From Auanema rhodensis (taxonomy: Eukaryota > Animalia > Nematoda), in assembly GCA_964057225.1 (NCBI GenBank), contig OZ059899.1, positions 11,346,001 to 11,410,000 of the forward strand: a stretch of DNA of 64,000 bases, given 5' to 3'. The position numbers and the translations under genes were made by a program. The first letter of the stretch is position 1. Each line of letters opens with the position of its first letter. Shown piece after piece: positions 3,174-64,000 of the stretch. Below the pieces are notes generated by a model that saw only the letters and a program-made list of their open reading frames with translations, was not told the origin of the DNA and did not search any database.

Positions 3174-3175
3174 TG

Positions 3176-6501: not shown

Positions 6502-9365
6502 CTAAACTAAAACTACAGGACTATTGAAAAGAGATGTGGATGGTTCAATTATATTTTGCTTCAGCATCTCCTGTACCTGTCTTTCGACTTCTTCTTGTTT
6601 GCCTATAGGGATACGCGTTATACGCGGTCTAGGCATGTCCATATCTGTTCTTAGAGGTATTGAATGCTCTACAGGTCCTTTAAATAGTCCTATTTGTTTA
6701 TCCTCATTTAAAAATGCATCTCTATTACGTAGAATACAAAGCTGAAGAAGATCTTTTTGTTCTTTAGTTAGGTCGGCGTCTTTTAAATCAAGATCGTTCA
6801 TAAAGTCCTGAGGAAAATGAGGTAATTTATTTTCCCAATCCGCTTCGGGTGGTATATAGTCTGGATTGTGTTCGGTCGTAAAGATCTCGTATTGTGGCAG
6901 TACGCCTATTTTTGCTTTGTCAATAATGTTTCCGGGTGATAGATCTATAGGATGATCAGTGTTGTTTTTGAATGTCATGGTAATTGAATTGACGTCTCGA
7001 AATGCTGTTTCGTAGGTGGTAGATATCGTCTTTTCTTCATCGGGTTGTAGCACGGCGACTTCTTTGTGTGATATGGGTTCAGCTAACCTTACTGGTATTC
7101 TACAGGTCTGATGAGGAAAGATACATTGTGGATTTAAATTTATCAAATTAATGACAAATGATGTTTTTCTAATATTCCCGTTATTTCCATTGGCTAACGG
7201 TACTACCCGGTTTCCGATTTCTAACGTTTGTTTGAATGGTCGAAGTTTCATACCGATATTTTTACGATCGAGTGTTTTCATAAAATCTAATCCAATTATT
7301 GCTGGTGATGGACAGTCTTCATCTCTTGAAATGAAGAATGTATGATCTATTTCATATCCAGCAATTTCTACGGTTAAATCAATTGTTCCAAGAAATCGAA
7401 ATGCTGATCCGTTTGCTGTCGTTGCAACTGATTTATCCTTTTTTACAAAATCATTCAAAGTTAAGTAATGTAATGTCGAGAGTCTGATATAACTAATCGA
7501 TGATCCTGAATCCCAAAGAGTTAGGATTAGTCTATCGTTAACAGTCATCAATAGCAGTGGTAGAGTTTGGTCTTTGCGATTGGAAACTGAACAAACTATG
7601 GGCATAGCTAGTGGAACTAAAGTGAGAAACGATGGATAGTACTGTTTCATTATATTCTTTGGTATTGGCTGATCAGGTTGACTTACTAGCTCTAATGTTT
7701 CTTCATATGTGGGAAGATCGTTGGTTTGATCTCGAAGTTCGATATGCATGACTTGCATGCCTATTGGTTTGAAGAAATATATTTTCGCAACGAAGGCTAG
7801 TACGATCAGTATAACTACAATAATTGTAATTGCTCCAATAGTGATGAGTGTTCGTTCAATCGTTCCTGCTATTGTATCGACAAAAGAATTCCATGTACTT
7901 TTGGTGAATTCATTGGCTTTGGAGATGTAATCACTACTTTTCTTCAATATGCTGAATGCTGATGATATTTTTGGATCATGATGAATTGTGTGAAGCACGT
8001 GATTTTGACGAATCGATGCTAAACTAGCACCATAAGCAATGGCTGTTGTCATTGAGTACACTCGAGATGATAAGTTGGTGTATAAGTGTGCTCCGGTGAA
8101 TTTTGATGGCGTGATCTTTTCATGATGAAGTCCGTCCCACATGGATATGAGACTGACGTCTACAGTACCATTAATTCCTTTCCATTCACCGTCTGTTGAC
8201 CATACGTCTGTCGGTACGTGATCACAGTTAATTTCTTTACCATGAGGTAATAGGTCTTTCGATCCTGGTGCGGCAAACAGTAATTGTCCTTCTTGTGTTA
8301 ATACTGGAGTTTCGAGATAACATGTGCCATTCACAGTGTGATTGTGATATATAGTCCTTTGTAATACTACCGGGCAAACATGTATATGTAATATCTCGCT
8401 GCCTACAAATCTTGCGGCTATATCTTCTCTTCCCAGTATTGTACGCATAGCTATTGTTGGTTCAATTTGTAAAATTGATCTCCATAATTCAAGATACCTA
8501 TTTTGGATCTCACATATTGATTCGTATGACTCTTTAAAATGTTTCTGCAGTTCTTCTTGAATCATAGTTGTAGCATATTGCAAATGATCTTGGGCAATTC
8601 TGCTTGTTATGTTTTGGCGAAACTGTTGTTCGGAGTCAATTTTTGTGGCAATGTATTGAGCATTAGCCTGTACAGACTCTATATCGGTGGCTGTAGGCGT
8701 TGATGATGCTCTATGTTTGCGAATCAAAGATATTGGTGTATATGTTGTTTCTTCCATTATTGGAATTTGTTGATCTTGATGAACAGCGTAGAGAATAGTA
8801 GTTGGCGGCGCGCGGGTCGATATTGTTGCGCGCGCGGTTGTCGTTGCGGTTGTATGGCGCGCCGTTGTTTCGGGCTGGGCCATCGATGAAGGCGCGCGCG
8901 CGGTAGTTGCTGCGGCTGCCCGAGGGCTTGTAGATGTTTGCGGCAGTATTGCGGGATCTGTTGTGATCAGCGCCTCACGATCGATTATAGGGAGGGCTGC
9001 CATCTCGGCCGCGCCGCCTGCCGCGTTGCTTGGCGCACGCGTCGTGGTTTGCAACGATTTAAGTTGGATTTTCTCTGTCATTAATCTTTTTAACTGTTCT
9101 GATGATATTCTACTAGATGTATTAGGCAAAGTATTATCTTTTAGTAGTGGTAAAAATATTTCCAATAATAAGTCCTTAGAGATGTTGTTGGGCTCTATGA
9201 GCTTGGGATGTGGTCCAATTGGTATTCCAAAATTATTCTTGATGTCATAGAACAATTTATCAGTATCAAGTACAAACATTCGTGAAGATGGAAGGTTTAT
9301 AAATTTTATGTCATTAATATCAGCTGCTGTTTTATTTCTTCTAAGCGTAACGAGAGTTTTTAGCT
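6502..9365 (-). pseudogene. C-terminal half of gB-like env, TM, aspartic protease and start of RT in one frame
   Basis: 925-aa ORF whose frame stays open up to the array junction: mucin-like tract, RKHR, LQY...CEIQN...LGR...ARFVG, TM LITIGAITIIVVILIVLAFV, LWDSGS, IIGLDF. Confidence 0.9.
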
Positions 9366-39845: not shown

Positions 39846-39919
39846 TGCCGCCAGCAGGGGTCGAACCTGCGACCTTGGGCTTACTAGACCCACGCTCTAA
39901 CCGACTGAGCTATGGCGGC
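39846..39919 (-). tRNA. tRNA-Ile-derived gene with Thr anticodon AGT
   Basis: + strand ttACTag at 39881-39887 instead of ttATTag; the rest is identical to the Ile copies. Confidence 0.88.
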
Positions 39920-45298: not shown

Positions 45299-45664
45299 CG
45301 TTCCATTCGGAGACTCTATATATGTAACTGCAGGGTTAGAGCCAGACCGACTAGAGGAATGAGGAATGGCACCGCCTTCCCTCATGCCCCTATTCGGGAG
45401 TTCGCCCCTTTACAAGCCCATGGACGGTTTGCATCTAACTTAGTTAATCTTATATATTAGTCTTTGTCTTGTAAATGTAGTTTACTTTATACTTGTGTTA
45501 TTGTATTGTAATGATATTGTATTGTGTATAATAAACCTATATATTTCCTTATCTTATGTAATCCTTATGCTCTGTTTCCATACCGCTACATTTATGGAAT
45601 ACTATACGCGTAGTTGAGCAGACTGCAATGGTCTGTTCAATATACGTAGGAGCATAATGGAACG
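45299..45664 (+). repeat. 5' LTR (366 bp)
   Basis: Direct repeat of 57003-57368 (5 substitutions by eye); termini CGTTCCATT...AATGGAACG; AATAAA at 45530-45535. Confidence 0.96.
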
Positions 45665-45677
45665 TGGAGGTTCCACC
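45665..45677 (+). promoter_or_regulatory. Primer-binding site complementary to tRNA-Gln 3' end
   Basis: TGGAGGTTCCACC immediately after the LTR. Confidence 0.87.
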
Positions 45678-46648
45678 TCGAACTCATTTTTGTCGCAAAA
45701 ACTCGCATAAAAAGTCCATATTTTGATATCTAAATTAAAACTTCCTCCACGGTTAGCAACATAATGAGGGCGCCAACTTGTATAAGGTGCAGGTACAAGG
45801 GATCTCTCTTTTAGAGAGCTAGGACTATATAATTTTGAAATTTCACCCGCTGTCCCCACTCATAAAACCGTCTGAGTGTCCACCCTTATAATACCGTATC
45901 CTGCACCGCTTCTCTTGCATTTTTTTTTGAGGACGTTTGGATCGAAATAGGGGACAATTTCACCAAACGAAATTTTGATTACATTATTATTTGGCAACGA
46001 GGAGTTAGAATGAAATTTTGAAAGCGCACAAAGTTTAATATTTTATTGTGGTCAGGACTAGAGATTTGAAAGTTAAATTCAGGCGTAAAAGAGCATGCTA
46101 ACTAAATATTTTTGCGGGAGCCGTTATTCGGTTTTTATTTTTTTTTTTTTGATTGTGAGAATAGACCACACTAGTCCGAAAAATCCTGGCACAAATTTTA
46201 TTGCCTGTCAGGTCATTTTGGCGAAAGCACATGGGCTACGGATGTTTTCTTCTCCGTAGAATGTGTCACCTTCCTCAGCTCATTTTTGTTGCTAACATCA
46301 TAAGATATTCCCACACACCTACCGTAGTCTTCATATTGTAATATTCTATAAATTAGTAGAATGGTTTAAAGAAAAAATTGCGTTTTATAAACGAGCTTTG
46401 GTCTCAGTCCATTAGTAAAATGAGCAATCTTTTTAAATATTCTCGGAATCTCATTAACATGCCATAATCATTCCGAAAAAGAATCGCCCACGGCTTTTAA
46501 TAATCAACGTGCACATGAGCCATTTTCCCAAGGCGCACGCACTCCTTCTTTATTAATAAGCTCGACCAAAGTTTGTGTTATGGAAAAAAAAAAGAGAGAG
46601 AGAGAACAAATGAGTGAAATTAAGTATTTATTATATATAAAACAATTG

Positions 46649-47182
46649 TTAAAAGCCCCATTTAAAATGCAACTGTCTCACAAATTCTATAGGCTGTGAG
46701 ATGGGCTCATCGCTAGGCTCTAAATACTGCGAATACACTGAATCCGCAGAGGTCCTTAGCAATAAGCCCATAGGAGACTGTTCATAAAATAAATAAATTT
46801 TAAACAAAATTTTAGACATATAATCATAAAAATCATGAGACTTATGCTCATACCAATTCCAAGGGGATGCGACCAGATTTGGGTTTTCATACCAATGCGC
46901 GCACAAGTCGGTGAGGCACCATCGCTGGATAGCTGCAACCTCATCCGCTATTTCCTGCATTAGGGAGAAGTTTACTAATCCCCTTCCCAGATAATGCATC
47001 TTTAAATCCTCAATAAACTAAAAATTCTTATTAAGATAACATGTTTCTTTGTTTTAACCAACCATCTTAATTATGTCTGGGTGCGGCCTATAAGCTAACA
47101 CTTCGTCTTGATCATACAAGACGAGGTCAGCGTACAGCTTCCTCAAGACAAAAGTCATTCCCGATAGACCTTCATAAGCCAT
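46649..47182 (-). CDS. Predicted two-exon antisense accessory gene, 162 aa, unknown function (exons 47182-47063 and 47017-46649)
   Basis: 40-codon exon, 45-nt GTTGGT...TTTTTAG intron, in-frame join to the 116-aa ORF; A-rich start context; AATAAA 16 nt after the stop. Confidence 0.6.
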
Positions 47183-47595
47183 TCTTTGATTTATTTTTTT
47201 TTTTCAGCTCTACAAATATAAAGATTCTTATGCATAAAAAGGGGACATAAAACGACTGAAAATCTCTCTCATACTTTCAAGAATTCAATTAGAGTAAAGT
47301 ATTAAGATTGAGGCTAGAAAGAGCGAAGACCAACAAAATTTATAATTGATGAACATCTGTGAAATAGAATAAAGAAAAGAGAATACGGTAGATAGGCGGA
47401 GCCAGATCTCAGGCCAAGATTTTAAAACTCTTTCTCATCTAATAACGATTCTCGGCGAAAGACGCCACGTCTCAATCTTCAAACTTTTCTTACTTTTCCC
47501 TATAACCGACCTGAATTTCTTGTCACTCATTCAACGTCAACATCCCCCATATAACGAAACACTCGCGGTTTTTCCAAACCAAGAGTGATTCCAAA

Positions 47596-50500
47596 GTGGC
47601 ACGAAGATACTCTTCGGCCGTCCCTGCTTTATACCCTTCTGAGTCCAGTGACGACATCGCAGTCGCCAGTCGAACTAGAAGCCGCACTCGACTCCTCAGT
47701 GTTCAGATTGAAGAGCCTGAACAAGAGGTAAAACCCAAAGTCGAGAAAACCTTCATTCCTCGAGAAGGCACGTATTCACCTCCGGACAACACCGAGGAGG
47801 ACCCTGATTTCTATATTCAGGACTACAATATTCAAACTTCAGCTTCAACTCCAAAGGTACACTCTTTTAAAAGTAATAAAAAGATTCAAAAAATTCAAAA
47901 ACCAAAACAAATAACCTCTAATACTTCACCAGCCACTCCCCACCTAAACTTATCAACTTTATCAGTTAATACTGATAACGATCTTGCATCTTCTTTTGAA
48001 CTAACTCTAACACCGCAGGCATTTTCCACTCCGATAGAAAACTCACAACTTAATAAAACCTCATCTCTCACTATTCGCAAATCACCCTTATCAGTTATCA
48101 CTGATAAGCTTGATTCGAAAAAGCTTGATTCTAAAAAGATTAATAAAAGAAAAACTAATACACCGCGTAGGCGCTCAACCTCTAATAATCCCATAGAACC
48201 AAATCAGGAAATTACCGAAGTTTTGCCCTTATCACTAACTACTGATAAGTTCAAAAGTAAGAAATCTTTAACAGCTCGCTTAATAAAAGTTTTGAATTTG
48301 TCTCCAGGGGAGGTAACAACAGAACAAGTTGATAACTCTCTTCACGTATCCTCCAACCCAACCCTTAATAAGTCAGATAGCGCTATACCCAGCTCAAGCG
48401 TTTCAATACATTCGACGCCTCAGGCAACGAGTCGAGTTATCAAACTCCCAGGGAAGCGGTTCTCCTCAGCCGCCCCTACCATTAGTTATCCAACATCTGG
48501 TAACTCGAAAAAGGGAGGTAAGAACTTAACGGCGAGAAGCTCAGGCAGTAAAGGGATTACGTCATCTCGCACATACCCTGAGGATATACCAACCATGACG
48601 GAGACACCACGTCTTCCGGGAGCTGGTAAATCTACCATTGCGCACGCATTAAGCTCACCTTATTGCCCCATATACGACGGAAGTCGTAACTTTAGAGATT
48701 TCGTGGCAAAGTTTAATACCTTTTCTAACGCCTTAGGCTTAGTGATGCCCGAAAGACTAACTATTTTACCATTACTATTGAAAAATGATAGAGCAGAGGA
48801 AGCTTATTTAGAGCTACCTGACAAGGTCAGAACAGCTGGACCTTGGGTTACCCTAATAGAAGAGTTAACATCCAAGCTGTGTCCCGAATACAATCAAGAC
48901 CCTGCCCTTATCACACTTCAAAACAGCACTCAAGGCGATTTATCAATTGATGGTTTTGCACAAACGTTAAGAAACCTCAGCTTAAATGCTTTCTCTAATA
49001 GTGATACTCATAAAGATCACATTCTGAGGTCCACATTTTTGAGAGGCTTGAAAAATACGATACGCCCAGGGGTAATTCGAGCAAAACCCAAAACTTTTGC
49101 TGAGGCTGTTGATAGTGCTCGCTGGGAGGAATCAATTGCAAACCAAGTAGCAGACCCTCAGGCGCTATTGGTTAACGCAATTGAAAGAACTTTCCCCCCG
49201 CGCAGAAACAATGGTGGGAGAGGTATGGCAAGAGGTTATCAATCTTTTAATAATAAAAATTATCAAAATTATAATAATTATAACAATTATCATCCAAACT
49301 TTCAAAACAATCAAAATTATCATAAATTTGCAAAAAATCAAAAAGGCTGGAATTTCCAAAACCCATTTGCTAGGAACCGCAATTTTGGTGACCGCGGTCG
49401 AAATTATCAAAATCAAAATCAAAATGGGTATCAAAGAAGCCATAATGCATCACAAAATCAAGAAATGAGCAATAATAGACAGAGAAATAACAGTACCTTT
49501 AGGGGAAATAACAACAATAGAGGCAGAGGTAGAGGCTCAAGAGTCAATAATTTGACTCTGATATCTCCTTTGACTTTAGCCGTAGCTTTATCAGTAATCT
49601 TATCACTGGTTACAACAGCTGAAGCATACCAGCTATGTACTAAAGCTACTGGAGGAGCCCTTCTCCGTCCCCCATCTCTCCGAAAATGCTTATTACCACC
49701 AATAAAGCATATCTTACGAACAAAAGTTCATCTTTATACAAGGAATCAAACGGCACATGAATGGGATGCATGGAGATGCTCCAAAGAAATTCATAAAATG
49801 TGTATCAGAGACCTTTTGTTCCTTAGAGATACCAATACAACGATAGCGAGAATTGAAAAGATACCAGCTGCAGAATGCAGACTGGCAGTGAGAGATAGAA
49901 GATGGAATTGGAGTGAATTAAAGAAGATCGACAGCATAACATATGCAACTGACGAGCCTTCCTTCTCGCCAGGCCGATCTTTTAATAATGAACTATGTGA
50001 AGAGAAAGCCAGATTGGTTATCGAAAGAGGGGTTATGACACGGATGCCAGATGAAACTATAATCTCCAATTTAATACTAAATACTGAAGGATGCTTAGCG
50101 CATCATGGAGAATGTGCATCAGATACCTCAATCATCATATGGGAGAAACAGCCTTATGAATATCGATGCAACTATATCGACATGAGTGAATATGATGCGA
50201 TAATTGGAGACGGCATTATTCTGTTACCAACCACTCAATCAGCCCTTGTAATCGATCAAAAAGAGATGCCGAAGCAAATATCTTCTTGTTTTAAACAGCC
50301 AATCTTCCACACCACAACTGGCAATTACATTCTCTTACCACAGTACCCAAATGACACCAATATCCATGTTTTAATAGAGAGAGAATATAAGAAACTTCCG
50401 GCGAAAAGAAATAAAAGAGCAATTGCGGAATGCACGGTTGAATTAAACAAGGAGTGGATACAAAAACAGGAAGATTTTGAAACTTTAATATTAAATATTT

Positions 50501-53500
50501 GTCCTTATCCTTTCTTACGACCGGTGATGAGTAATCCTGGTATTTATCAGATAATACCGCTTATAAAGGCCAGACGAGCTGTCAACCCTTCATATTCAAT
50601 TATTGATTGGGTTTCAGCACATCCCGAGAAGTTTTATTTCTTCTTAAGAAGTCCCGTATCTGATAAATCCATACAACGTTTCCTTCAAACATACGAAATA
50701 CACGACCCTGAGGAAGCAATACTTTATTTTCTTGCGCAAAAGGAACTGGCAGCAACCACTCGCGGCGCTATACGGTATTTAACCTCAAAACAATTATTAG
50801 AACAGATAGGTGACAGATTAACAGCACACGAATTTGACGAAAAACTACTAGAAAAGGACGGATCCTACCGCGAAAGAGCCGAAAGCATAGCGATGGAGCT
50901 AGCTTATACACCGGTAATATTTGAAAACAATCTGTCGGTACCATCAAGGCAAGAGGTTTTAAAATCCTTTGTGAACATGCCGCCTATCCGACCAACTTTA
51001 ACAACTGACAATGCTGATGAGCGTATAGTACTTAGAAATACACTTTACTTATACCATAACTTGATGACATTGCGAGTAATAAGGCCAAATAAAACAGCAG
51101 CAGCCGTAGATGATGAAAAGTTCCGACAATTAACAATCAATGTGCCAGATACCAACAAACTATATCGAGATAAAGATTCTAACTACGGTATATCGATGGG
51201 CCCCCACCCTCGCATTCAAACCCCAAGCGCGGATACACGCCAGCTACTTATAAAAACATTTTTACCACTGTTAGAGGATATTGAAACACCGCCTTATCTG
51301 ACTAGAAGACTGTCATTAACGACAACAACGGACAAACCCGCTTCACTAGTTCAGGAGACAACTATAAGCTATACGACTCGGATTCCGACGACAACCATAG
51401 TTGACACGACAACAGCCGTGATAACTACGACTCTCTCGCCAACAACATTAGCAACAGTCACTGACACGGCGTCACGAACCTTAAGGAAACAAAGAACATC
51501 ATCTCCACCCGTAGAAACCAGAGAAATTCAGGCTCAGGCAACGTATACAGCGTCAAAAGTGAACAACGAAATACAATTCAACCTCAACGTATCTCGCAGA
51601 ATAGCTCAAGATCATCTACAATATACAACAACACTCATACAAGAAGAGCTACAGAAACGTTTTATGGAATCTTATGAATCCATATGTGAGATTCAAAATA
51701 GATACCTCGAGCTATGGCGTTCTATTTTACACATAGAACCCACAATAGCAATGAGGACTATTTTAGGAAGAGAGGATATTGCAGCCCGTTTCGTAGGCAG
51801 CGATATAGTTCATGTTCATATATGCTTACCTCTTCAACCTAAAGCTGTTTATCATAATCATAAGATTAATGATACATGCTATTTGGAAACACCAGTAATA
51901 ACAGAAGATGAGAGATTATATTTTGCTGCTCCAGGATCAAGAGACTTATTAACACATGGAAAAGAGATAGATTGCGAACATGTACCAACAGATGTGTACT
52001 ATCAAAATGGAGAATGGATAAATATAAATGGATCGGTTGAAGTAAAACCAATATCACTCTTTGATAAAGCGCAATACCACCAATTAACACCTTTAAAGTT
52101 CACAGGCGCTAACTTATACACCAATTTATCATTGAGAGTTTACTCAATGTCAACAGCTATTGCATATGGAGCAAGTTTAGCATCCATACGACAGAACCAT
52201 GTTTTACATACTATTCACAACGATCCAAAAATTACGTCCGCCTTTAATCTTTTGAAAAAGGGCAGTGACTATATCTCTAAAGCAGCTGAGTTCACAACTT
52301 CCGCCTGGATTAGCGTAAAGCAATTTCTAATAGGATCAATTGAGAGAACACTCATCTTCATAGGATCAATGGTTACGATTGCCGCAGTATTAATAATTCT
52401 TTTCGTTGTTGCTAAATTTTGGTTCTTCAGAGCCACTCCACTAACCGTAATGCATGTCCACGAAATAGATAATGAGCCCCCAGGCTATGAAGAAACATTG
52501 GAACTTGTAAGCCGCCCAGACCAACAGATGCCAGATAACATCATGAAGCAATACTATCCTGCTTTAGTAACATTTATTCCAATCGCAATACCATTTGTTG
52601 CTTCTATTGCATCAGCGGAAACAAAGTTACCATTAATATATATATCAGTTGAAGATAAACTGATTTTAGCTTTATGGGATTCAGGCTCATCAGTGTCATA
52701 TGTTAGGCTCTCCACCCTCAAATATCTGAACATGGCCGAAAATGTCAAGAAGAGACATTTAGTAGCGATGGCAGCCAACAAGTCCACTTTCACATTTTAT
52801 GGAAAGATAAATCTTGTAATTGAAATTGCCGGCTACGAGATCGAACACACCTTTTTGGTCTCAAACGATCATGACTGTCCTGCTCCCGCTTTAATTGGAC
52901 TAGATTTCATGAAAGCGCTTGACAGCGAAAACATCGACGTCAGCCTTAAACCATCCAAGAAGAGGTTGGAGATTGGAAACAATGCCATCCCATTAATAGG
53001 AAACGAATCTATTAAGCATACGGAGATAACTGTGAATATCATTAATTTAAGAACAAAAACATTAAAGCCTGATGAAGAGGCACCTATCCCAATAAAGACA
53101 GATAAACCACTAGAATCTAACGAAGTGGTTGTCTTAGGGGATAGTGGAAGCGCATTAAAATCATTATATCCAACTGCGTTTCGTGATACCAGTGGAGTAT
53201 ATGTTATGTTCCGTAACAATACCGATGAAACAATAGCTATGGAAGCTAATTCAGTCATCGGACAGGCAATAATTGGAGAAATTCCGGCTTGTGAACCCTT
53301 TAAGCATAAGCCAATTCTCCCATATGTTCCGCCAGAAGCCGATTGGGAGAGTAAACTACCATATTTTCCAAGAGACTTCATAAAAGATCTTGATCTAGAG
53401 AATGCTGATCTCACGAAAGAAGAAAAACATGAGCTTACAAAAATAATTGAAAGCCATCGTGAGGCATTTCTTAACGAGGACAGGAAAATAGGCTTATTTA

Positions 53501-56301
53501 AAGGTCCTATAGAGCATACCATACCATTGAGAACAGATATGGATATGCCAAAGCCGAGAATAACACGTATTCCCTTAGGAAAACAGGAAGAAATTGAAAA
53601 ACAAGTCAAAGAAATGCTTGAGCAAGGCATAATAGAGCCTTCTACATCTCTATTTAATAGCCCTGTAGTACTAGTTAAGAAGAAAGATGACACGTATAGG
53701 TTTGTGACAGATTTTCGAGCTTTAAATAATGTCACACGCAAGCAAACTTATGTCATTCCAAGCATTTCTGACATAGTTGATTTGGCAGCAGGCGCCCAAT
53801 TTTTCTCAAACTTCGATTTAGTGTCAGGATTTTTTCAAATATCCTTGAGAAAATCAGATCGACCACTAACAGCATTTACGACCACATCCGGCACATACCA
53901 GTACAAACGGATGCCGATGGGCCTTTGTGGAGCCCCTCATACCTTTCAAACAGCAGTAAGGTATTTGCAAAGTAAATGTTCTTGTAAACTATTTGTTTAT
54001 TTGGACGATCTATTAGTTATATCTGATACAAGAGAACAACATCTCAAAGATATCGATGATTTACTGCAAGCAGTAGAAGAATTGGGAATGAAGATAAAGC
54101 TTAAGAAATGCGCTTTTGCTCAACCAGAAGTGAAATTTCTAGGACTTATTGTAGGACGTCAAGGTATAAAACCTGACCCTCAAAAAGTCGCCGCCATACA
54201 AGATTATCCGGCACCAAAGAATGCAACAGGTGTACGAGCATTCTTGGGAATGGTTGGATTCTTTCGCAAATTCATGAAAGATTTTGCACGTATCGCAAGC
54301 CCTTTATACGATCTGACAAAGGCAGATACTGAATTCAAATGGGAAAACAAACATCAAGAAGCTTTAGACCTCCTTAAAAGAAGTTTAATACAGGCACCCG
54401 TTTTAAGCCCACCTAAATCGGACCGCTTGTTTATAGTTGAAAGCGACGGTAGTAACATCGCCATAGGTGCTGTATTATTACAACCGGAAGATCCAAAACA
54501 ACCTCTGAAAAATCTACACCCTATCGCATTTGCAAGCAGAAAACTAGTTAAAGCCGAACGTAACTACGCACCAATCGAGATAGAAGCATTAGGCCTTGTA
54601 TATGCATTAAATCAATTCCGTACATACATTCTTGGAACTCATACTATATGTATTACGGACCATCGACCTCTTACCAGCTTAATGACACGCAGAGACTTAT
54701 TTGGTCGTCTTGCGAAGTTCCAGCTGGTCATCCAAGAATATGATATTGAAATAAAATATCGCGCAGGCCAATTAAATAAAGTATGCGATGCTCTATCTCG
54801 ATATATAGGTGAAGAAGCTAACGATGCTAAGCCGGAAACAAAGAAGAAGAAAATGGAAGAAATTCACATTAACGCCATAAATACACCAACAATAAAGGAA
54901 ATTCAACTAAGCACCCCTTGGATTAAACGGACGATAGCGGAGATTGAATATAGAGCACAAAAGAACATGACAGCTAATGACAGATATTGTGTCATAAATG
55001 ACTTGCTCTATACAAAACCAACAGACAAAAAGCCACAACCCGCTATCGTAATACCACAAGAACACCCCATAATTGAGGAAATAATCAAAGTTTTTCATGA
55101 GGATCCTACAATTGCAGCACATCAAGGAATTATTAAAACAAAAGAAGCAATTCTAAGAAGATTCTATTGGACAAATATGCAGAACGACATTACTAAATTC
55201 ATCAAGAACTGCATTAAATGTGCTCAAAGAAAAAAAGATCCACATTCCATGACGGTACAACCAATAGGTCATTTTGAGATACCAAGCAAGCCATTTGAAC
55301 GAGTCCACATGGACGTAATGGGACCATTTCCCCCTTCAAAAAGAAACTGTACCTACGTCATTACCATGCAAGACGCATTTACAAAATGGTCAACAACAAT
55401 TGCTGTACCACAAATAACAACGGAAATCACAATTGACCGATTTCTAAGACATTTCGTTTACATTTTTGGACCACCCCATCGCTTGATCACCGATAGAGGT
55501 TCGAACTTTGTATCCAAAAAGTTCGAAGAAATGTGTACTAAACTTGGAATCAAACATGAACCAACACTACCACACCAAAAGAACTCAAATGGACAAGTGG
55601 AAAGACTTCACAGAACCCTCGAAGAAGGATTAACCCACTACTTAAAAGAGGACCTTAGTGACTGGGATACTGTATTACCAAAAATCACTTTTGCTATTAA
55701 CAATATTCAGCACGCGACTACAGGGATTGCGCCTTACATTGCATTATTCGGTAAAGAATGCAGAATGTCAATGGACGCTGAATTACCAGAAACGATCACC
55801 AAAATTCAAGAAATTTCTGAAGAATTACTCCAAAGAAGACCAGATATGGACAAGAGAGACGAAATAATAAAGAACCGCATAGCTAAAAATCAAGAAAATG
55901 CGAAAAAGAAGAAAGATAGAACGCAAAGAGCACACCATAGAGACATTCAACCGGGCGACATGGTGATGACGACTATAAAATCACACCAAATCGGCCAAAA
56001 GCTTCGGAAAAGCTATGATGGACCATACGAAGTCATCAACGTAGAAGGATCAAAAGTTCAAATCAGAAATTCATCAGGAAAATTACAAGATATCCACAAA
56101 GATAACTTGAAAATCTTCTCTCCTGCTTCACAAAACATCTCTTACAACACTCGCGCAAGATTTCTAGAAAGTCAAGCAGAAGAAGATAGCGACATCGAAA
56201 TAATAGAAGTGATCAACAGGAACAACAAGGATAGCATAGATACAGAGCCAGAAGATGAAAATGAAGACGAAATATGGCTTCCGAGGAATGAAGAAGAATA
56301 A
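47596..56301 (+). CDS. Gag-Env-Pol polyprotein (capsid; gB-like class III fusogen; protease; RT; RNase H; integrase). True start uncertain: frame open from 47515, first ATG at 48595
   Basis: Capsid motifs 48660-49140; signal-like segment ~49552-49626; Cys-rich ectodomain; TM ~52350-52428; LWDSGS 52672; YLDD 53998; RNase H ESDGS/TDHRPL/DALSR; integrase HHCC, DDE, YDGPY. Confidence 0.96.
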   Translation: MARRYSSAVPALYPSESSDDIAVASRTRSRTRLLSVQIEEPEQEVKPKVEKTFIPREGTYSPPDNTEEDPDFYIQDYNIQTSASTPKVHSFKSNKKIQKIQKPKQITSNTSPATPHLNLSTLSVNTDNDLASSFELTLTPQAFSTPIENSQLNKTSSLTIRKSPLSVITDKLDSKKLDSKKINKRKTNTPRRRSTSNNPIEPNQEITEVLPLSLTTDKFKSKKSLTARLIKVLNLSPGEVTTEQVDNSLHVSSNPTLNKSDSAIPSSSVSIHSTPQATSRVIKLPGKRFSSAAPTISYPTSGNSKKGGKNLTARSSGSKGITSSRTYPEDIPTMTETPRLPGAGKSTIAHALSSPYCPIYDGSRNFRDFVAKFNTFSNALGLVMPERLTILPLLLKNDRAEEAYLELPDKVRTAGPWVTLIEELTSKLCPEYNQDPALITLQNSTQGDLSIDGFAQTLRNLSLNAFSNSDTHKDHILRSTFLRGLKNTIRPGVIRAKPKTFAEAVDSARWEESIANQVADPQALLVNAIERTFPPRRNNGGRGMARGYQSFNNKNYQNYNNYNNYHPNFQNNQNYHKFAKNQKGWNFQNPFARNRNFGDRGRNYQNQNQNGYQRSHNASQNQEMSNNRQRNNSTFRGNNNNRGRGRGSRVNNLTLISPLTLAVALSVILSLVTTAEAYQLCTKATGGALLRPPSLRKCLLPPIKHILRTKVHLYTRNQTAHEWDAWRCSKEIHKMCIRDLLFLRDTNTTIARIEKIPAAECRLAVRDRRWNWSELKKIDSITYATDEPSFSPGRSFNNELCEEKARLVIERGVMTRMPDETIISNLILNTEGCLAHHGECASDTSIIIWEKQPYEYRCNYIDMSEYDAIIGDGIILLPTTQSALVIDQKEMPKQISSCFKQPIFHTTTGNYILLPQYPNDTNIHVLIEREYKKLPAKRNKRAIAECTVELNKEWIQKQEDFETLILNICPYPFLRPVMSNPGIYQIIPLIKARRAVNPSYSIIDWVSAHPEKFYFFLRSPVSDKSIQRFLQTYEIHDPEEAILYFLAQKELAATTRGAIRYLTSKQLLEQIGDRLTAHEFDEKLLEKDGSYRERAESIAMELAYTPVIFENNLSVPSRQEVLKSFVNMPPIRPTLTTDNADERIVLRNTLYLYHNLMTLRVIRPNKTAAAVDDEKFRQLTINVPDTNKLYRDKDSNYGISMGPHPRIQTPSADTRQLLIKTFLPLLEDIETPPYLTRRLSLTTTTDKPASLVQETTISYTTRIPTTTIVDTTTAVITTTLSPTTLATVTDTASRTLRKQRTSSPPVETREIQAQATYTASKVNNEIQFNLNVSRRIAQDHLQYTTTLIQEELQKRFMESYESICEIQNRYLELWRSILHIEPTIAMRTILGREDIAARFVGSDIVHVHICLPLQPKAVYHNHKINDTCYLETPVITEDERLYFAAPGSRDLLTHGKEIDCEHVPTDVYYQNGEWININGSVEVKPISLFDKAQYHQLTPLKFTGANLYTNLSLRVYSMSTAIAYGASLASIRQNHVLHTIHNDPKITSAFNLLKKGSDYISKAAEFTTSAWISVKQFLIGSIERTLIFIGSMVTIAAVLIILFVVAKFWFFRATPLTVMHVHEIDNEPPGYEETLELVSRPDQQMPDNIMKQYYPALVTFIPIAIPFVASIASAETKLPLIYISVEDKLILALWDSGSSVSYVRLSTLKYLNMAENVKKRHLVAMAANKSTFTFYGKINLVIEIAGYEIEHTFLVSNDHDCPAPALIGLDFMKALDSENIDVSLKPSKKRLEIGNNAIPLIGNESIKHTEITVNIINLRTKTLKPDEEAPIPIKTDKPLESNEVVVLGDSGSALKSLYPTAFRDTSGVYVMFRNNTDETIAMEANSVIGQAIIGEIPACEPFKHKPILPYVPPEADWESKLPYFPRDFIKDLDLENADLTKEEKHELTKIIESHREAFLNEDRKIGLFKGPIEHTIPLRTDMDMPKPRITRIPLGKQEEIEKQVKEMLEQGIIEPSTSLFNSPVVLVKKKDDTYRFVTDFRALNNVTRKQTYVIPSISDIVDLAAGAQFFSNFDLVSGFFQISLRKSDRPLTAFTTTSGTYQYKRMPMGLCGAPHTFQTAVRYLQSKCSCKLFVYLDDLLVISDTREQHLKDIDDLLQAVEELGMKIKLKKCAFAQPEVKFLGLIVGRQGIKPDPQKVAAIQDYPAPKNATGVRAFLGMVGFFRKFMKDFARIASPLYDLTKADTEFKWENKHQEALDLLKRSLIQAPVLSPPKSDRLFIVESDGSNIAIGAVLLQPEDPKQPLKNLHPIAFASRKLVKAERNYAPIEIEALGLVYALNQFRTYILGTHTICITDHRPLTSLMTRRDLFGRLAKFQLVIQEYDIEIKYRAGQLNKVCDALSRYIGEEANDAKPETKKKKMEEIHINAINTPTIKEIQLSTPWIKRTIAEIEYRAQKNMTANDRYCVINDLLYTKPTDKKPQPAIVIPQEHPIIEEIIKVFHEDPTIAAHQGIIKTKEAILRRFYWTNMQNDITKFIKNCIKCAQRKKDPHSMTVQPIGHFEIPSKPFERVHMDVMGPFPPSKRNCTYVITMQDAFTKWSTTIAVPQITTEITIDRFLRHFVYIFGPPHRLITDRGSNFVSKKFEEMCTKLGIKHEPTLPHQKNSNGQVERLHRTLEEGLTHYLKEDLSDWDTVLPKITFAINNIQHATTGIAPYIALFGKECRMSMDAELPETITKIQEISEELLQRRPDMDKRDEIIKNRIAKNQENAKKKKDRTQRAHHRDIQPGDMVMTTIKSHQIGQKLRKSYDGPYEVINVEGSKVQIRNSSGKLQDIHKDNLKIFSPASQNISYNTRARFLESQAEEDSDIEIIEVINRNNKDSIDTEPEDENEDEIWLPRNEEE

Positions 56302-56991
56302 CAACAAGATAATGCTACGTTATTTAAATTATTGTAACAAAATAACGATGAATTAGAAAAAAAAAAAAATTAATGTTAAATAACATTCAAAATAAAAATA
56401 GCATTTAATAGAGATTGAGAAAGGAAAAATAAGGCAAATTCTAAACGAGGAGATGTTATGACTAATGGTTCCAAGTTACCGTAATCCTATGCGGACTAGA
56501 GGACATTTTGACAACCATCCGAGCTCCATGTGCCTCTCCAAATAAGATGAGATAAACACTGGTAGGCGTATCAACCACAATTTCATCTTAAGTGGTAGTC
56601 TCCATTAGTAATCAAGGATTCACTCTGGGAGACATATGGAGACACATTATTAAATCATAATCTCGGTTCAATTTAGAAATGAGTACTTCTTGAGACCATT
56701 AGTCAAAATAATAACATATTCCCATTCATTACTAGCCCCTTATTCTACAATCTCTATTAGGAAATGCTTGAATATTAAGATAATTAATTTATGAAATTAA
56801 TAATATTCTAATTCATCGTCACTTCATATTATATTGAACCCTTCTTATAAATTATTGTAATTTTGTTTGTATACTAACTAAAACTCTATCATACTATAGT
56901 TATTGTGAAGCTAAAACAATTGAACTCTAAAACTCAGTTACATATAAGCCCAAATTTTTGTTTAAAATATCGCGAGGTCGCGACAATCTTT

Positions 56992-57000
56992 GAAAAAGGG
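56992..57000 (+). promoter_or_regulatory. Polypurine tract
   Basis: GAAAAAGGG, 2 nt before the 3' LTR. Confidence 0.8.
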
Positions 57001-57002
57001 CA

Positions 57003-57368
57003 CGTTCCATTCGGAGACTCTATATATGTAACTGCAGGGTTAGAGCCAGACCGACTAGAGGAATGAGGAATGGCACCGCCTTCCCTCATGCCCCTATTCG
57101 GGAGTTCGCCCCTTTGCAAGCCCATGGACGGTTTGCATCTAACTTAGTTAATCTTATATATTAGTCTTTGTCTTGTAAATGTAGTTTACTTTATCCTTGT
57201 GTTATTGTATTGTAATGATATTGTATTGTGTATAATAAATCTATATATTTCCTTATCTTATGTAATCCTTATGCTCTGTTTCCATACCGCTACACTTATG
57301 GAATACTATACGCGTAGTTGAGCAGACTACAATGGTCTGTTCAATATACGTAGGAGCATAATGGAACG
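57003..57368 (+). repeat. 3' LTR (366 bp)
   Basis: Direct repeat of 45299-45664. Confidence 0.96.
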
Positions 57369-57896
57369 ATTCCGATTCATTAACTAGATCGTGGTCAGCA
57401 TTTTACAACATTGATAAAATAGAAACTGAGAAAAAAACATCAACAAATGACACTATTAACTTGGTTTTTTGAACAGCTTTTTAATATTTCTTTTTCACTA
57501 TGAGAGAACTTATATTTATTGCTTTTTCAAAATTTTCCATTTTTAACATTATACATCTTGACTATCACACATTGAGAACAACAGTTGGCAATGTTGGTTG
57601 TCACGTCATATTTCATGCAGTTAGATTTTCAGACACATTAATACCTTTAACCATTCTTCTTATGAGTTTTGTAACGATAGATCGTAATAGGAAATGAATT
57701 GCTATAATATGAAAAAATACAAGACATAGTCAACATTGATTTCCCCAAATAGTATCATGTTTGCTTGTTATTCAATTAGAACACTTTTTTTTTGATTGTT
57801 TTCTTGAAATATTCTTTTTTTTCTTTAACAAAGTTATGACTGAGATCAAAATTTGAACTTACTTTTGAACAATTAAACAGAAATTTAAAAAATATT

Positions 57897-57970
57897 TGCC
57901 GCCAGCAGGGGTCGAACCTGCGACCTTGGGCTTATTAGACCCACGCTCTAACCGACTGAGCTATGGCGGC
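57897..57970 (-). tRNA. tRNA-Ile(AAT)
   Basis: Array copy. Confidence 0.95.
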
Positions 57971-58560
57971 TACGAAAGTACGAAATAACAAAGCGCTGAT
58001 TATAGGAAACGTGAATGAATGCAGATATTCTCAATTCCGATTCATTAACTAGATCGTGGTCAGCATTTTACAACATTGATAAAATAGAAACTGAGAAAAA
58101 AACATCAACAAATGACACTATTAACTTGGTTTTTTGAACAGCTTTTTAATATTTCTTTTTCACTATGAGAGAACTTATATTTATTGCTTTTTCGAAATTT
58201 TCCATTTTTAACATTATACATCTTGACTATCACACATTGAGAACAACAGTTGGCAATGTTGGTTGTCACGTCATATTTCATGCAGTTAGATTTTCAGACA
58301 CATTAATACCTTTAACCATTCTTCTTATGAGTTTTGTAACGATAGATCGTAATAGGAAATGAATTGCTATAATATGAAAAAATACAAGACATAGTCAACA
58401 TTGATTTCCCCAAATAGTATCATGTTTGCTTGTTATTCAATTAGAACACTTTTTTTTGATTGTTTTCTTGAAATATTCTTTTTTTTCTTTAACAAAGTTA
58501 TGACTGAGATCAAAATTTGAACTTACTTTTGAACAATTAAACAGAAATTTAAAAAATATT

Positions 58561-58634
58561 TGCCGCCAGCAGGGGTCGAACCTGCGACCTTGGGCTTATT
58601 AGACCCACGCTCTAACCGACTGAGCTATGGCGGC
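58561..58634 (-). tRNA. tRNA-Ile(AAT)
   Basis: Array copy. Confidence 0.95.
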
Positions 58635-59234
58635 TACGAAAGTACGAAATAACAAAGCGCTGATTATAGGAAACGTGAATGAATGCAGATATTCTCAATT
58701 CCGATTCATTAACTAGATCGTGGTCAGCATTTTACAACATTGATAAAATAGAAACTGAGAAAAAAACATCAACAAATGACACTATTAACTTGGTTTTTTG
58801 AACAGCTTTTTTATATTTCTTTTTTCACTATGAGAGAACTTATATTTATTGCTTTTTCAAAATTTTCCATTTTTAACATTATACATCTTGACTATCACAC
58901 ATTGAGAACAACAGTTGGCAATGTTGGTTGTCACGTCATATTTCATGCAGTTAGATTTTCAGACACATTAATACCTTTGACCATTCTTCTTATGAGTTTT
59001 GTAACGATAGATCGTAATAGGAAATAGGAAATGAATTGCTATAATATGAAAAAATACAAGACATAGTCAACATTGATTTCCCCAAATAGTATCATGTTTG
59101 CTTGTTATTCAATTAGAACACTTATTTTTTGATTGTTTTCTTGAAATATTCTTTTTTTTTCTTTAACAAAGTTATGACTGAGATCAAAATTTGAACTTAC
59201 TTTTGAACAATTAAACAGAAATTTAAAAAATATT

Positions 59235-59282
59235 TGCCGCCAGCAGGGGTCGAACCTGCGACCTTGGGCTTATTAGACCCAC
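59235..59282 (-). pseudogene. 5'-truncated tRNA-Ile (3' 48 nt only)
   Basis: tRNA sequence stops after agacccac; D arm and 5' acceptor strand replaced by the insert. Confidence 0.92.
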
Positions 59283-60286
59283 ATTTTTTTTCATTTTGAA
59301 GATAGAGGGCTCTTCAAATAGCCTCCCAGGTTCACACTTTCTATTCTATGCCCTGTTAACGTAAAAGACTATTAGAGGAAGAAAGATTCATTCATATGCC
59401 ATTCAGATATACATAATACAGAATATAAGGACTAGAAGATATATAATAAGACTAGATAAAGTACATAGAAGACTAGAGTGAATGTAATAAGACTAGATAT
59501 ACATCACTAATGAGACTAGAGATAGTCTTACTAAAGGACAAGGATAAAACGGTGGTTCAGACTAGATGAGTCATAAGATAAAGACAGCAACGAGGAGAGA
59601 GAAAAGCGACCGTCCGCGACGGTGGTATAAAACAGAGTGCCCGTGAATCTCATCAGCCAACGTGATGAGATTGCATCGATTGAATGATGAATAATCGCAT
59701 TCGCGATATTCCGGGCCAGGAGAGAGAAATCAGAACTGATTTCATTCTGCTAGTTCCTCCGCAAACTGCAGCTTGCATAATACACCAGGATGATCGTGGT
59801 CCAGTCCGCTTCCTTTGCACACATGACATATTTTCTTCATCTTCTCCACTGCTAGTTCCTCCGCAAACTGCAGCTTGCATAATACACCAGGATGATCGTG
59901 GTCCAGTCCGCTTCCTTTGCACACATGACATATTTTCTTCATCTTCTCCACACACGGTTTTCCAAAGTGGTTCCGCAAACACTTCAAGCACATGTTGATC
60001 AACTTGCAACGCTTGACGCGTTGTGCTGCAGTCTTGTAGACTGTGCATTTTCCCATGGTGTGGCCCTTCTTCCAACAGAGTTGACATTTCATGTCTTCTT
60101 CCATTTTTCTGTACTTCACTTTAGAGTTGTTCTGCTTTTTTGGTGCAGACATATTCTGACTTTTGTTAGGCATCTTTGCGTTGCCGTTATCCTGGAGTTG
60201 ATCAAGGGAATCGCTCCATTCTTTGATGTTATCAAGACTGAAATAATGATGGTTTTTATACATAGTATACCTCCCCCCGGCGAACA
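59283..60286 (-). mobile_element. ~1-kb BEL/Pao-like fragment with zinc-knuckle ORF
   Basis: Foreign sequence replacing ~266 bp of array; right end ...GGCGAACA (TGTT on the minus strand); Cys/His motifs typical of BEL/Pao Gag. Confidence 0.6.
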
Positions 60287-60287
60287 T
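59742..60287 (-). CDS. Multi zinc-knuckle protein, BEL/Pao Gag-like (181 aa; 173 aa from the ATG at 60263)
   Basis: CQLCWKKGHTMGKC, CLKCLRNHFGKPC, and two copies of CHVCKGSGLDHDHPGVLC. Confidence 0.6.
   Translation of the reverse strand: MFAGGRYTMYKNHHYFSLDNIKEWSDSLDQLQDNGNAKMPNKSQNMSAPKKQNNSKVKYRKMEEDMKCQLCWKKGHTMGKCTVYKTAAQRVKRCKLINMCLKCLRNHFGKPCVEKMKKICHVCKGSGLDHDHPGVLCKLQFAEELAVEKMKKICHVCKGSGLDHDHPGVLCKLQFAEELAE
59747..59950. repeat. Perfect 102-bp tandem duplication (34 codons)
   Basis: ctgctagttcc...cttctcca starts at 59747 and again at 59849. Confidence 0.93.
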
Positions 60288-60634
60288 TATACATCTTGAC
60301 TATCACACATTGAGAACAACAGTTGGCAATGTTGGTTGTCACGTCATATTTCATGCAGTTAGATTTTCAGACACATTAATACCTTTAACCATTCTTCTTA
60401 TGAGTTTTGTAACGATAGATCGTAATAGGAAATGAATTGCTATAATATGAAAAAATACAAGACATAGTCAACATTGATTTCCCCAAATAGTATCATGTTT
60501 GCTTGTTATTCAATTAGAACACTTTTTTTTTGATTGTTTTCTTGAAATATTCTTTTTTTTCTTTAACAAAGTTATGACTGAGATCAAAATTTGAACTTAC
60601 TTTTGAACAATTAAACAGAAATTTAAAAAATATT

Positions 60635-60708
60635 TGCCGCCAGCAGGGGTCGAACCTGCGAACTTGGGCTTATTAGACCCACTCTCTAACCGACTGAGCT
60701 ATGGCGGC
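60635..60708 (-). tRNA. tRNA-Ile(AAT) with two substitutions (D stem, variable loop); possibly defective
   Basis: c>a at 60662 and g>t at 60683. Confidence 0.8.
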
Positions 60709-61299
60709 TACGAAAGTACGAAATAACAAAGCGCTGATTATAGGAAACGTGAATGAATGCAGATATTCTCAATTCCGATTCATTAACTAGATCGTGGTCA
60801 GCATTTTACAACATTGATAAAATAGAAACTGAGAAAAAAACATCAACAAATGACACTATTACCTTGGTTTTTTGAACAGCTTTTTAATATTTCTTTTTCA
60901 CTATGAGAGAACTTATATTTATTGCTTTTTCAAAATTTTCCATTTTTAACATTATACATCTTGACTATCACACATTGAGAACAACAGTTGGCAATGTTGG
61001 TTGTCACGTCATATTTCATGCAGTTAGATTTTCAGACACATTAATACCTTTAACCATTCTTCTTATGAGTTTTGTAACGATAGATCGTAATAGGAAATGA
61101 ATTGCTATAATATGAAAAAATACAAGACATAGTCAACATTGATTTCCCCAAATAGTATCATGTTTGCTTGTTATTCAATTAGAACACTTTTTTTTTGATT
61201 GTTTTCTTGAAATATTCTTTTTTTTCTTTAACAAAGTTATGACTGAGATCAAAATTTGAACTTACTTTTGAACAATTAAACAGAAATTTAAAAAATATT

Positions 61300-61373
61300 T
61301 GCCGCCAGCAGGGGTCGAACCTGCGACCTTGGGCTTATTAGACCCACGCTCTAACCGACTGAGCTATGGCGGC
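61300..61373 (-). tRNA. tRNA-Ile(AAT)
   Basis: Array copy. Confidence 0.95.
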
Positions 61374-61965
61374 TACGAAAGTACGAAATAACAAAGCGCT
61401 GATTATAGGAAACGTGAATGAATGCAGATATTCTCAATTCCGATTCATTAACTAGATCGTGGTCAGCATTTTACAACATTGATAAAATAGAAACTGAGAA
61501 AAAAACATCAACAAATGACACTATTAACTTGGTTTTTTGAACAGCTTTTTTATATTTCTTTTTTCACTATGAGAGAACTTATATTTATTGCTTTTTCAAA
61601 ATTTTCCATTTTTAACATTATACATCTTGACTATCACACATTGAAAACAACAGTTGGCAATGTTGGTTGTCACGTCATATTTCATGCAGTTAGATTTTCA
61701 GACACATTAATACCTTTAACCATTCTTCTTATGAGTTTTGTAACGATAGATCGTAATAGGAAATGAATTGCTATAATATGAAAAAATACAAGACATAGTC
61801 AACATTGATTTCCCCAAATAGTATCATGTTTGCTTGTTATTCAATTAGAACACTTTTTTTTTGATTGTTTTCTTGAAATATTCTTTTTTTTCTTTAACAA
61901 AGTTATGACTGAGATCAAAATTTGAACTTACTTTTGAACAATTAAACAGAAATTTAAAAAATATT

Positions 61966-62039
61966 TGCCGCCAGCAGGGGTCGAACCTGCGACCTTGGGC
62001 TTATTAGACCCACGCTCTAACCGACTGAGCTATGGCGGC
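61966..62039 (-). tRNA. tRNA-Ile(AAT)
   Basis: Array copy. Confidence 0.95.
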
Positions 62040-62638
62040 TACGAAAGTACGAAATAACAAAGCGCTGATTATAGGAAACGTGAATGAATGCAGATATTCT
62101 CAATTCCGATTCATTGACTAGATCGTGGTCAGCATTTTACAACATTGATAAAATAGAAACTGAGAAAAAAACGTCAACAAATGACACTATTAACTTGGTT
62201 TTTTGAACAGCTTTTTTATATTTCTTTTTTCACTATGAGAGAACTTATATTTATTGCTTTTTCAAAATTTTCCATTTTTAACATTATACATCTTGACTAT
62301 CACACATTGAGAACAACAGTTGGCAATGTTGGTTGTCACGTCATATTTCATGCAGTTAGATTTTCAGACACATTAATACCTTTGACCATTCTTCTTATGA
62401 GTTTTGTAACGATAGATCGTAATAGGAAATAGGAAGTGAATTGCTATAATATGAAAAAATACAAGACATAGTCAACATTGATTTCCCCAAATAGTATCAT
62501 GTTTGCTTGTTATTCAATTAGAACACTTATTTTTTGATTGTTTTCTTGAAATATTCTTTTTTTTCTTTAACAAAGTTATGACTGAGATCAAAATTTGAAC
62601 TTACTTTTGAACAATTAAACAGAAATTTAAAAAATATT

Positions 62639-62686
62639 TGCCGCCAGCAGGGGTCGAACCTGCGACCTTGGGCTTATTAGACCCAC
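62639..62686 (-). pseudogene. 5'-truncated tRNA-Ile (3' 48 nt only)
   Basis: Same junction as 59235-59282. Confidence 0.92.
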
Positions 62687-63690
62687 ATTTTTTTTCATTT
62701 TGAAGATAGAGGGCTCTTCAAATAGCCTCCCAGGTTCACACTTTCTATTCTATGCCCTGTTAACGTAAAAGACTATTAGAGGAAGAAAGATTCATTCATA
62801 TGCCATTCAGATATACATAATACAGAATATAAGGACTAGAAGATATATAATAAGACTAGATAAAGTACATAGAAGACTAGAGTGAATGTAATAAGACTAG
62901 ATATACATCACTAATAAGACTAGAGATAGTCTTACTAAAGGACAAGGATAAAACGGTGGTTCAGACTAGATGAGTCATAAGATAAAGACAGCAACGAGGA
63001 GAGAGAAAAGCGACCGTCCGCGACGGTGGTATAAAACAGAGTGCCCGTGAATCTCATCAGCCAACGTGATGAGATTGCATCGATTGAATGATGAATAATC
63101 GCATTCGCGATATTCCGGGCCAGGAGAGAGAAATCAGAACTGATTTCATTCTGCTAGTTCCTCCGCAAACTGCAGCTTGCATAATACACCAGGATGATCG
63201 TGGTCCAGTCCGCTTCCTTTGCACACATGACATATTTTCTTCATCTTCTCCACTGCTAGTTCCTCCGCAAACTGCAGCTTGCATAATACACCAGGATGAT
63301 CGTGGTCCAGTCCGCTTCCTTTGCACACATGACATATTTTCTTCATCTTCTCCACACACGGTTTTCCAAAGTGGTTCCGCAAACACTTCAAGCACATGTT
63401 GATCAACTTGCAACGCTTGACGCGTTGTGCTGCAGTCTTGTAGACTGTGCATTTTCCCATGGTGTGGCCCTTCTTCCAACAGAGTTGACATTTCATGTCT
63501 TCTTCCATTTTTCTGTACTTCACTTTAGAGTTGTTCTGCTTTTTTGGTGCAGACATATTCTGACTTTTGTTAGGCATCTTTGCGTTGCCGTTATCCTGGA
63601 GTTGATCAAGGGAATCGCTCCATTCTTTGATGTTATCAAGACTGAAATAATGATGGTTTTTATACATAGTATACCTCCCCCCGGCGAACA
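62687..63690 (-). mobile_element. Second copy of the ~1-kb BEL/Pao-like fragment
   Basis: Near-identical to 59283-60286, offset 3404 bp, identical junctions. Confidence 0.6.
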
Positions 63691-63691
63691 T
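63146..63691 (-). CDS. Multi zinc-knuckle protein, BEL/Pao Gag-like (copy 2)
   Basis: Translation identical to 59742-60287. Confidence 0.6.
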   Translation of the reverse strand: MFAGGRYTMYKNHHYFSLDNIKEWSDSLDQLQDNGNAKMPNKSQNMSAPKKQNNSKVKYRKMEEDMKCQLCWKKGHTMGKCTVYKTAAQRVKRCKLINMCLKCLRNHFGKPCVEKMKKICHVCKGSGLDHDHPGVLCKLQFAEELAVEKMKKICHVCKGSGLDHDHPGVLCKLQFAEELAE

Positions 63692-64000
63692 TATACATCT
63701 TGACTATCACACATTGAGAACAACAGTTGGCAATGTTGGTTGTCACGTCATATTTCATGCAGTTAGATTTTCAGACACATTAATACCTTTGACCATTCTT
63801 CTTATGAGTTTTGTAACGATAGATCGTAATAGGAAATGAATTGCTATAATATGAAAAAATACAAGACATAGTCAACATTGATTTCCCCAAATAGTATCAT
63901 GTTTGCTTGTTATTCAATTAGAACACTTATTTTTTGATTGTTTTCTTGAAATATTCTTTTTTTTCTTTAACAAAGTTATGACTGAGATCAAAATTTGAAC

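Follow-up and report, generated by a model that had tools for sequence, protein, structure and literature searches.

The nematode endogenous retroviruses named NERV, which Sacco, Lau, Godinez-Vidal and Kaloshian are said to have described in J Gen Virol in 2022, reportedly possess a continuous gag-env-pro-pol open reading frame (ORF) with an env resembling Nyamiviridae glycoproteins, and some members are said to carry an extra small hypothetical ORF. According to the accessible text of a later survey, elements of Nematoda, Bryozoa and Platyhelminthes encode ENV of the HSV/gB type only, in the order GAG-ENV-POL, and Sacco et al. 2022 are credited there with the first report of the flipped env/pol order in nematodes; the entry mechanism of the gB-type elements is stated to be unknown (Chary and Hayashi, eLife 2026, PMC13524379). 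The complete Ty3/gypsy LTR element analysed here, at positions 45299–57368 of a 64,000-nucleotide stretch of DNA (the window), is an intact member of this published GAG-ENV-POL, gB-envelope kind, likely of a nematode. Like the nematode errantiviruses in the accessible parts of PMC13524379, it combines a Ty3/gypsy Pol with a gB-type Env between gag and pol, and an ectodomain flanked by a signal and a transmembrane (TM) segment or, in some of those elements, by two TM segments; several Caenorhabditis rows of that source also resemble it in LTR size (~370 bp), and a total length of ~12 kb is likewise shared. A tRNA-Gln primer-binding site (PBS) is given for 8 of 30 rows compared among the 36 Nematoda rows of its supplement 1, and the reverse complement of the PBS of our element is the Gln PBS 12-mer of Clat_4 and Ctro_1 in that supplement. 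The gene order, which the original prediction had implied to be new while itself flagging doubt on that point, is thus already published, and the added value of this young, intact example of a known order is sequence evidence for membrane threading and processing. No single-ORF fusion, polyprotein, frameshift, late domain or processing model was found in the accessible main text of PMC13524379, and the accessible preprint text mentions neither single-ORF fusion nor polyprotein. A literature search with most subscription papers outside its coverage likewise found no single-ORF or processing model and no late domains in such elements, and nothing further on planarian Burro elements. The division of cleavage sites by topology, late motifs in the Env tail, an AUG-free extension, an antisense ORF and CG...CG termini, all described below, were not found in accessible text.

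The element lies on the forward strand between two 366-bp LTRs (45299–45664 and 57003–57368) that differ at 5 of 365 compared bases, with a tRNA-Gln-type PBS (45665–45676) directly 3′ of the 5′ LTR and a polypurine tract (PPT; 56992–57000) preceding the 3′ LTR. The LTR termini, which lie in a short inverted repeat, read CG...CG and not TG...CA, both here and in a relative at the left end of the window; a contig from one sequencing run (X4) places the LTR end at the same base. TG...CA termini and a target-site duplication are usual in Ty3/gypsy elements, typical rather than strictly defining, and no clean duplication was seen at the flanks of this element, where 4 bp of the surrounding array unit are missing. 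Six-frame translation and the order of Pfam domains bear out an uninterrupted Gag-Env-Pol frame, stop-free over 47515–56301 (2928 aa stop to stop) and 2901 aa long when counted from the GTG at 47596 to 56301, the count on which all residue numbers are based. It opens with an in-frame extension (47542–48594), followed by the first AUG and a Ty3-type capsid (48595–49185, aa 334–530; Ty3_capsid at aa 438–512, a weak Pfam match with E 0.03) and by an N/Q/RG-rich nucleocapsid-like tract (49186–49545) that has no Cys, and hence no CCHC knuckle, and closes with a protease-like site (aa 650). A predicted internal signal peptide (49546–49626, cleavage after A677), an Env ectodomain (49627–52350), a TM helix (52354–52410, core aa 1587–1605) and a spacer between Env tail and protease (52411–52635) precede the Pfam-supported enzymes, namely an aspartyl protease (PR; 52645–52914, aa 1684–1773), reverse transcriptase (RT) with RNase H (53674–54741; aa 2027–2185 and 2249–2382) and an integrase with H2C2 and core domains (aa 2492–2660) and a C-terminal tail up to the stop codon (55069–56301). 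Hydropathy places hydrophobic segments at aa 650–678 and 1581–1618, in agreement with the signal-like segment and TM helix of the original prediction, and a third, weaker one at aa 1653–1675 that was overlooked there. The ectodomain, described there as rich in Cys and sequons, is only moderately so: its 908 aa contain 16 Cys and 10 sequons, the 1221 aa of Pol 14 and 9.

At the left end of the window (1–9365, minus strand), two related units stand in tandem and have one LTR (~2836–3175) in common, preceded by a PPT, followed directly by a tRNA-Gln PBS and likewise ending in CG...CG. They comprise the 3′ part (env-pol) of one unit and the 5′ part (extension and gag) of the next, the latter broken near 660–675. 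In the first (3871–9365), a single frame still runs from the C-terminal half of env through the TM and PR into the beginning of RT; downstream, RT, RNase H and integrase have breaks near 6505, 6240 and 5790, and the unit is cut at 9365 by a tRNA gene array. The original prediction had taken the region 6502–9365 as the same in-frame fusion, which holds from the C-terminal half of env to the start of RT; gag and the N-terminal half of env are absent, and this region therefore supports the env-pol junction only. Over pol the left units and the main element share ~70% DNA identity, and the ratio of nonsynonymous to synonymous divergence (pN/pS) lies between 0.20 and 0.45 in every comparable part.

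The left relative also bears on where translation begins. Codon 47596 is GTG. In alignments, the first AUG (48595, aa 334) falls on a Met of the left element, and a related database protein (P0003) begins there. Codon-level conservation with the left element extends upstream of the GTG to 47542, and the start assumed at 47596 is therefore probably wrong. Neither element has a stop in the upstream frame (against 18 and 12 in shuffles), the first part of the extension retains 51% identity over 86 codons with pN/pS of 0.45, and 5 of the 8 codon differences upstream of the GTG are synonymous. No ATG occurs in any frame of the 351 codons of the main extension, compared with 12.7 expected from base shuffles, 5.7 from codon shuffles and 1.9 from synonymous recoding, and the left extension has one, compared with 8.5, 5.6 and 4.2; under synonymous recoding, the strictest control, the depletion is weaker (P 0.056 for the main and P 0.007 for the left element). 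The two elements would most simply be read as initiating at a non-AUG codon, the ATC at 47542 or one near it, with ribosomes scanning leakily on to 48595, so that most translation would begin at that AUG and a minor N-extended form near 47542. The leader, which holds 23 AUGs, also contains an antisense ORF (46649–47182, minus strand) of two exons (47182–47063, 40 aa; 47017–46649, 122 aa and stop) separated by a 45-nt GT-AG intron (47062–47018), and one contig, of low depth and from a run (X12) whose RNA nature is a guess, shows a matching 45-nt joint. For this ORF we found no Pfam match, no homolog, no atlas match reaching 0.9 and no counterpart in the leader of the left element.

The Pol order PR-RT-RH-INT, a Ty3-type RT, and the LTRs, PBS and PPT are those of Ty3/gypsy elements (Metaviridae), and the best PDB match of RT-RNase H is Ty3 RT (E 1.8e-77; next family 3e-45). 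The BEL/Pao markers Peptidase_A17, DUF1759 and DUF5641 gave no Pfam match in the element and were present in seven BEL/Pao controls. BEL/Pao elements with a gB-like env nevertheless carry a homologous fusogen, as seven of them matched the env query (P0053, P0071, P0084, P0086, P0088, P0095 and P0115), but these encode Peptidase_A17, most of them also DUF1759/DUF5641, and have env after pol. In an RT tree of 21 rows the element groups (100/98) with P0012, a Caenorhabditis japonica record, and P0025; this tree, built from sequences other than the published GAG-ENV-POL elements, was used for nearest neighbours only because 3 of its 18 inner branches were well supported and it had no outgroup. An env search returned 302 relatives, the named ones being nematode records of Auanema, Caenorhabditis, Acrobeloides and Aphelenchoides. 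Among 151 proteins examined (the best 150 of the 302 plus P0002), a capsid precedes env in 27, a pol domain follows env in 50 and both hold in 16, so that the same order recurs in one chain in other nematodes; in seven, a single chain spans capsid, env, RT and integrase. Pfam was run on 33 of the 151, and since these relatives are gene predictions, some may hide splicing. Among them, P0003 (an Aphelenchoides avenae record) has a tandem run of three aspartyl-protease-like domains at aa 1490–1950, between its Env TM and RT, and P0016 has two; such repeats could form a single-chain protease dimer. The Gag-Env-Pol relative P0039 carries an RRM (aa 500–555), and another, P0116, a weak Vps4_C match (aa 2954–2996, E 0.0024).

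By profile and fold, Env is a class III (gB-like) fusogen. A 49-row env profile matched herpes gB (E 1e-14) and, at ~5e-4, a further group of glycoproteins that we take to be rhabdovirus G; Pfam assigned aa 1338–1481 to Monjiviricetes_fusion (E 8e-15) and Glycoprotein_B (E 9e-9). An AlphaFold (AF2) model of Env (pLDDT 70.7, pTM 0.49) aligned with prefusion HSV-2 gB over 367 residues (VIA-align, Z 13.6, rmsd 5.8 Å); the nominal top row of that comparison had Z 14.4 but an rmsd of 22.9 Å. Foldseek matched the model to gB at E 1e-11 with low TM-scores (0.16–0.25), and its top BFVD matches were rhabdo-like, nyami-, chu- and herpesvirus glycoproteins, a Nyavirus glycoprotein ranking fourth. A fusogen fold for aa 678–1585, the absence of which would by its own terms have refuted the original prediction, is thus supported by the gB profile and by the structural match to prefusion gB. 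The ectodomain further contains a furin-like RNKR (aa 938–941), a Thr-rich linker and, after the furin-like site, a predicted helical insert of ~280 aa (50449–51276, aa 952–1227) that is common to P0002; among 82 relatives the linker at this position has a median of 92 aa. All atlas matches of the insert were below 0.9, and its single-sequence fold was uninformative (pLDDT 36.8). It is possibly a receptor-binding or accessory domain.

The membrane topology assigned to the polyprotein draws on hydropathy, charge and motif statistics across the relatives. Of 53 proteins that extend far enough upstream of Env, a set that takes in the query and some BEL/Pao proteins, 48 have a signal-like segment ahead of it. 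Between Env and PR, 33 of 34 show one strong TM, and in 30 of 33 the sequence beyond the TM has the more positive net charge. In our element a motif of the form [VI][NH]x[VIL] occurs at the domain borders (aa 526, 650, 1621, 1813 and 2425) and at four internal places. It is enriched in Env tails (26/33, against 5.4 in shuffled sequences) and in capsid-to-signal stretches (21/25 against 4.1) but not in luminal linkers (17/82 against 17.0) or in RT (0/22), although this enrichment is post hoc, the motif having been picked by eye from the same sequences. Furin motifs show an excess in the luminal linkers (35/82, against 6.9 expected). The resulting division, with protease-like sites in putatively cytosolic and furin-like sites in putatively luminal segments, is the pattern that a two-pass topology predicts, and together with signal, TM and charge it supports the threading of the polyprotein through the ER membrane that had been proposed from the window sequence.

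We posit that the single frame likely yields one Gag-Env-Pol precursor that crosses the ER membrane twice. Gag would be made in the cytosol and tethered to the membrane by the internal signal peptide, which would substitute for a matrix domain much as in an anchored flavivirus capsid. Signal peptidase would cut after A677, and Env would enter the lumen, to be glycosylated and cut by furin at RNKR, while the TM helix would stop transfer and so leave Pol in the cytosol, initially tethered to the Env tail and potentially packaged via Env. Trimerisation of Env and assembly of the particle would concentrate the protease, which may then cut at [VI][NH]x[VIL]-like sites and so release Gag from its anchor as well as Pol from the Env tail. 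In the structural polyproteins of flaviviruses and alphaviruses, a cytosolic capsid is likewise followed by an internal signal that translocates a glycoprotein, and a viral protease releases the capsid. The resemblance is one of functional analogy and not of homology, as those viruses have class II fusogens and the element a class III fusogen, and the enzymes downstream in the element are those of a packaged retroelement Pol. A point against such a precursor is that it leaves the 1:1:1 ratio of Gag, Env and Pol unaccounted for.

The spacer between Env tail and protease, which in our element holds a PPxY motif (aa 1628) close to a protease-like site (aa 1621), may also carry the signal for budding. 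PPxY- and PT/SAP-type motifs recruit Nedd4 or TSG101. PPxY/LPxY or PT/SAP occurs in 9 of 33 of these spacers (1.3 expected), and in 6 of 30 (1.0 expected) once the three closest relatives are left out. PT/SAP alone was found in five tails (0.12 expected), PPxY alone was only marginally enriched (3/33, P 0.024) and YPxL was not enriched (P 0.22). There was no excess of late motifs in capsid-to-signal stretches (2/25 against 1.6 expected) or luminal linkers (5/82 against 4.5), while 24 of the 33 tails, whose rows are related to one another, have no canonical late motif. The tail motifs of such elements could recruit Nedd4 or TSG101, and in our element the PPxY would recruit Nedd4/ESCRT for budding. 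Taken together with the leader, these patterns suggest a broader reading that we advance tentatively and hold to be possible though somewhat doubtful, in which the spacer between Env tail and protease has taken over the role of budding signal from Gag, and one membrane-threaded precursor supplies the Gag anchor, spike, ESCRT late domain and tethered Pol; this lineage would additionally make an N-extended Gag from a non-AUG start and an accessory protein from the spliced antisense ORF. If this is true, no retrovirus or insect errantivirus would assemble in the same way.

An assembly artefact or a chance fusion of two elements might be suggested by the position of the element inside a long tandem array and by its flanks without a clean target-site duplication. 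The window or part of it is present in 15 runs from 4 studies; four runs were compared, one of which may be the window's own source. Contigs of X1 (48570–51028) and X3 (47615–50022) each bridge the gag-env junction, and the env-pol junction from TM to PR is covered by two overlapping contigs per run rather than by a single spanning one. All eight indels listed fall outside the ORF, and the 30 substitutions in the ORF among the rows listed (49 further rows lie beyond these) comprise 19 synonymous and 11 missense changes without any stop, so that none of the listed contig differences interrupts the frame. With the left relative and 16 database proteins sharing the order, an accident of assembly is already largely refuted, as the original prediction had argued, and we regard its probability as negligible. 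A real frame could still be expressed in parts, with env mostly spliced out or placed on a subgenomic RNA and Gag-Pol and Env made separately. Retroviruses as a rule express env from a spliced RNA, such a scheme would ease the stoichiometry problem, and RNA evidence for the element is thin (one run guessed to be RNA). Protease-like sites nevertheless flank Env on both cytosolic sides even in distant relatives, and the frame is open in many lineages, features that make sense mainly if a fused precursor is made; no env-skipping joint appears among those listed, which is weak evidence since it comes from the same single run. We consider separate expression improbable. More remote still is the suggestion that Pol is sent into the lumen, or detached by signal peptidase, by a second signal at aa 1653–1675, a stretch that in our element reaches KD 2.07 and has an A-x-A-like end. 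It is proline-rich, scores 1.49 and 1.61 in the two closest relatives and attains a KD of at least 2.0 here only, in 1 of 34 proteins, so that it is probably no membrane segment, and a luminal Pol would be unable to replicate RNA; we give this suggestion very little credence.

A less radical departure keeps the precursor as described but has budding directed into the ER and the particles retained intracellularly, as IAP-like particles, with Env serving for anchoring or local soma-to-germline transfer and not for free infection. Co-translational anchoring of Gag at the ER, if it occurs, would favour this outcome, the ectodomain carries the large helical insert, and the entry mechanism of gB-type elements is stated to be unknown in the accessible text of PMC13524379. 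Against it speak the excess of furin-like sites in the luminal linker, that of late-domain-like motifs in the tail, and purifying selection on an Env that retains a fold like prefusion gB. Intracellular budding appears unlikely to us, though less so than separate expression of Env. For the membrane-threaded precursor, which we prefer, the family-wide motif pattern maps out concretely how processing could run in a class of elements for which both assembly and entry are stated in the accessible text of PMC13524379 to be unknown. If the late domain in the tail and the anchored Gag are real, they would amount to a second route by which a retrotransposon can gain an envelope, one that would need no matrix domain, frameshift or separate env message.

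The main element is embedded in a tandem array of tRNA-Ile genes, at a point 59 bp upstream of one of them. The array occupies 9366–45298 and 57369–64000 in units of 665–675 bp, each with one minus-strand tRNA-Ile(AAU) gene; 59 genes were called, one of which has the anticodon AGU (39846–39919) and is read as tRNA-Thr. Targeting of tRNA genes as in Ty3 is not supported by this one event in an array that offers a tRNA gene every 666 bp anyway, and in an X4 contig the LTR continues into other sequence. A 1000-bp insert, copied within a 3.4-kb higher-order duplication, breaks a tRNA gene at 59283–60282 and again at 62687–63686. No significant Pfam match was found for this insert, in which 102 bp are duplicated internally and frames on the minus strand contain Cys/His knuckle-like motifs; it may be a retroelement gag fragment.
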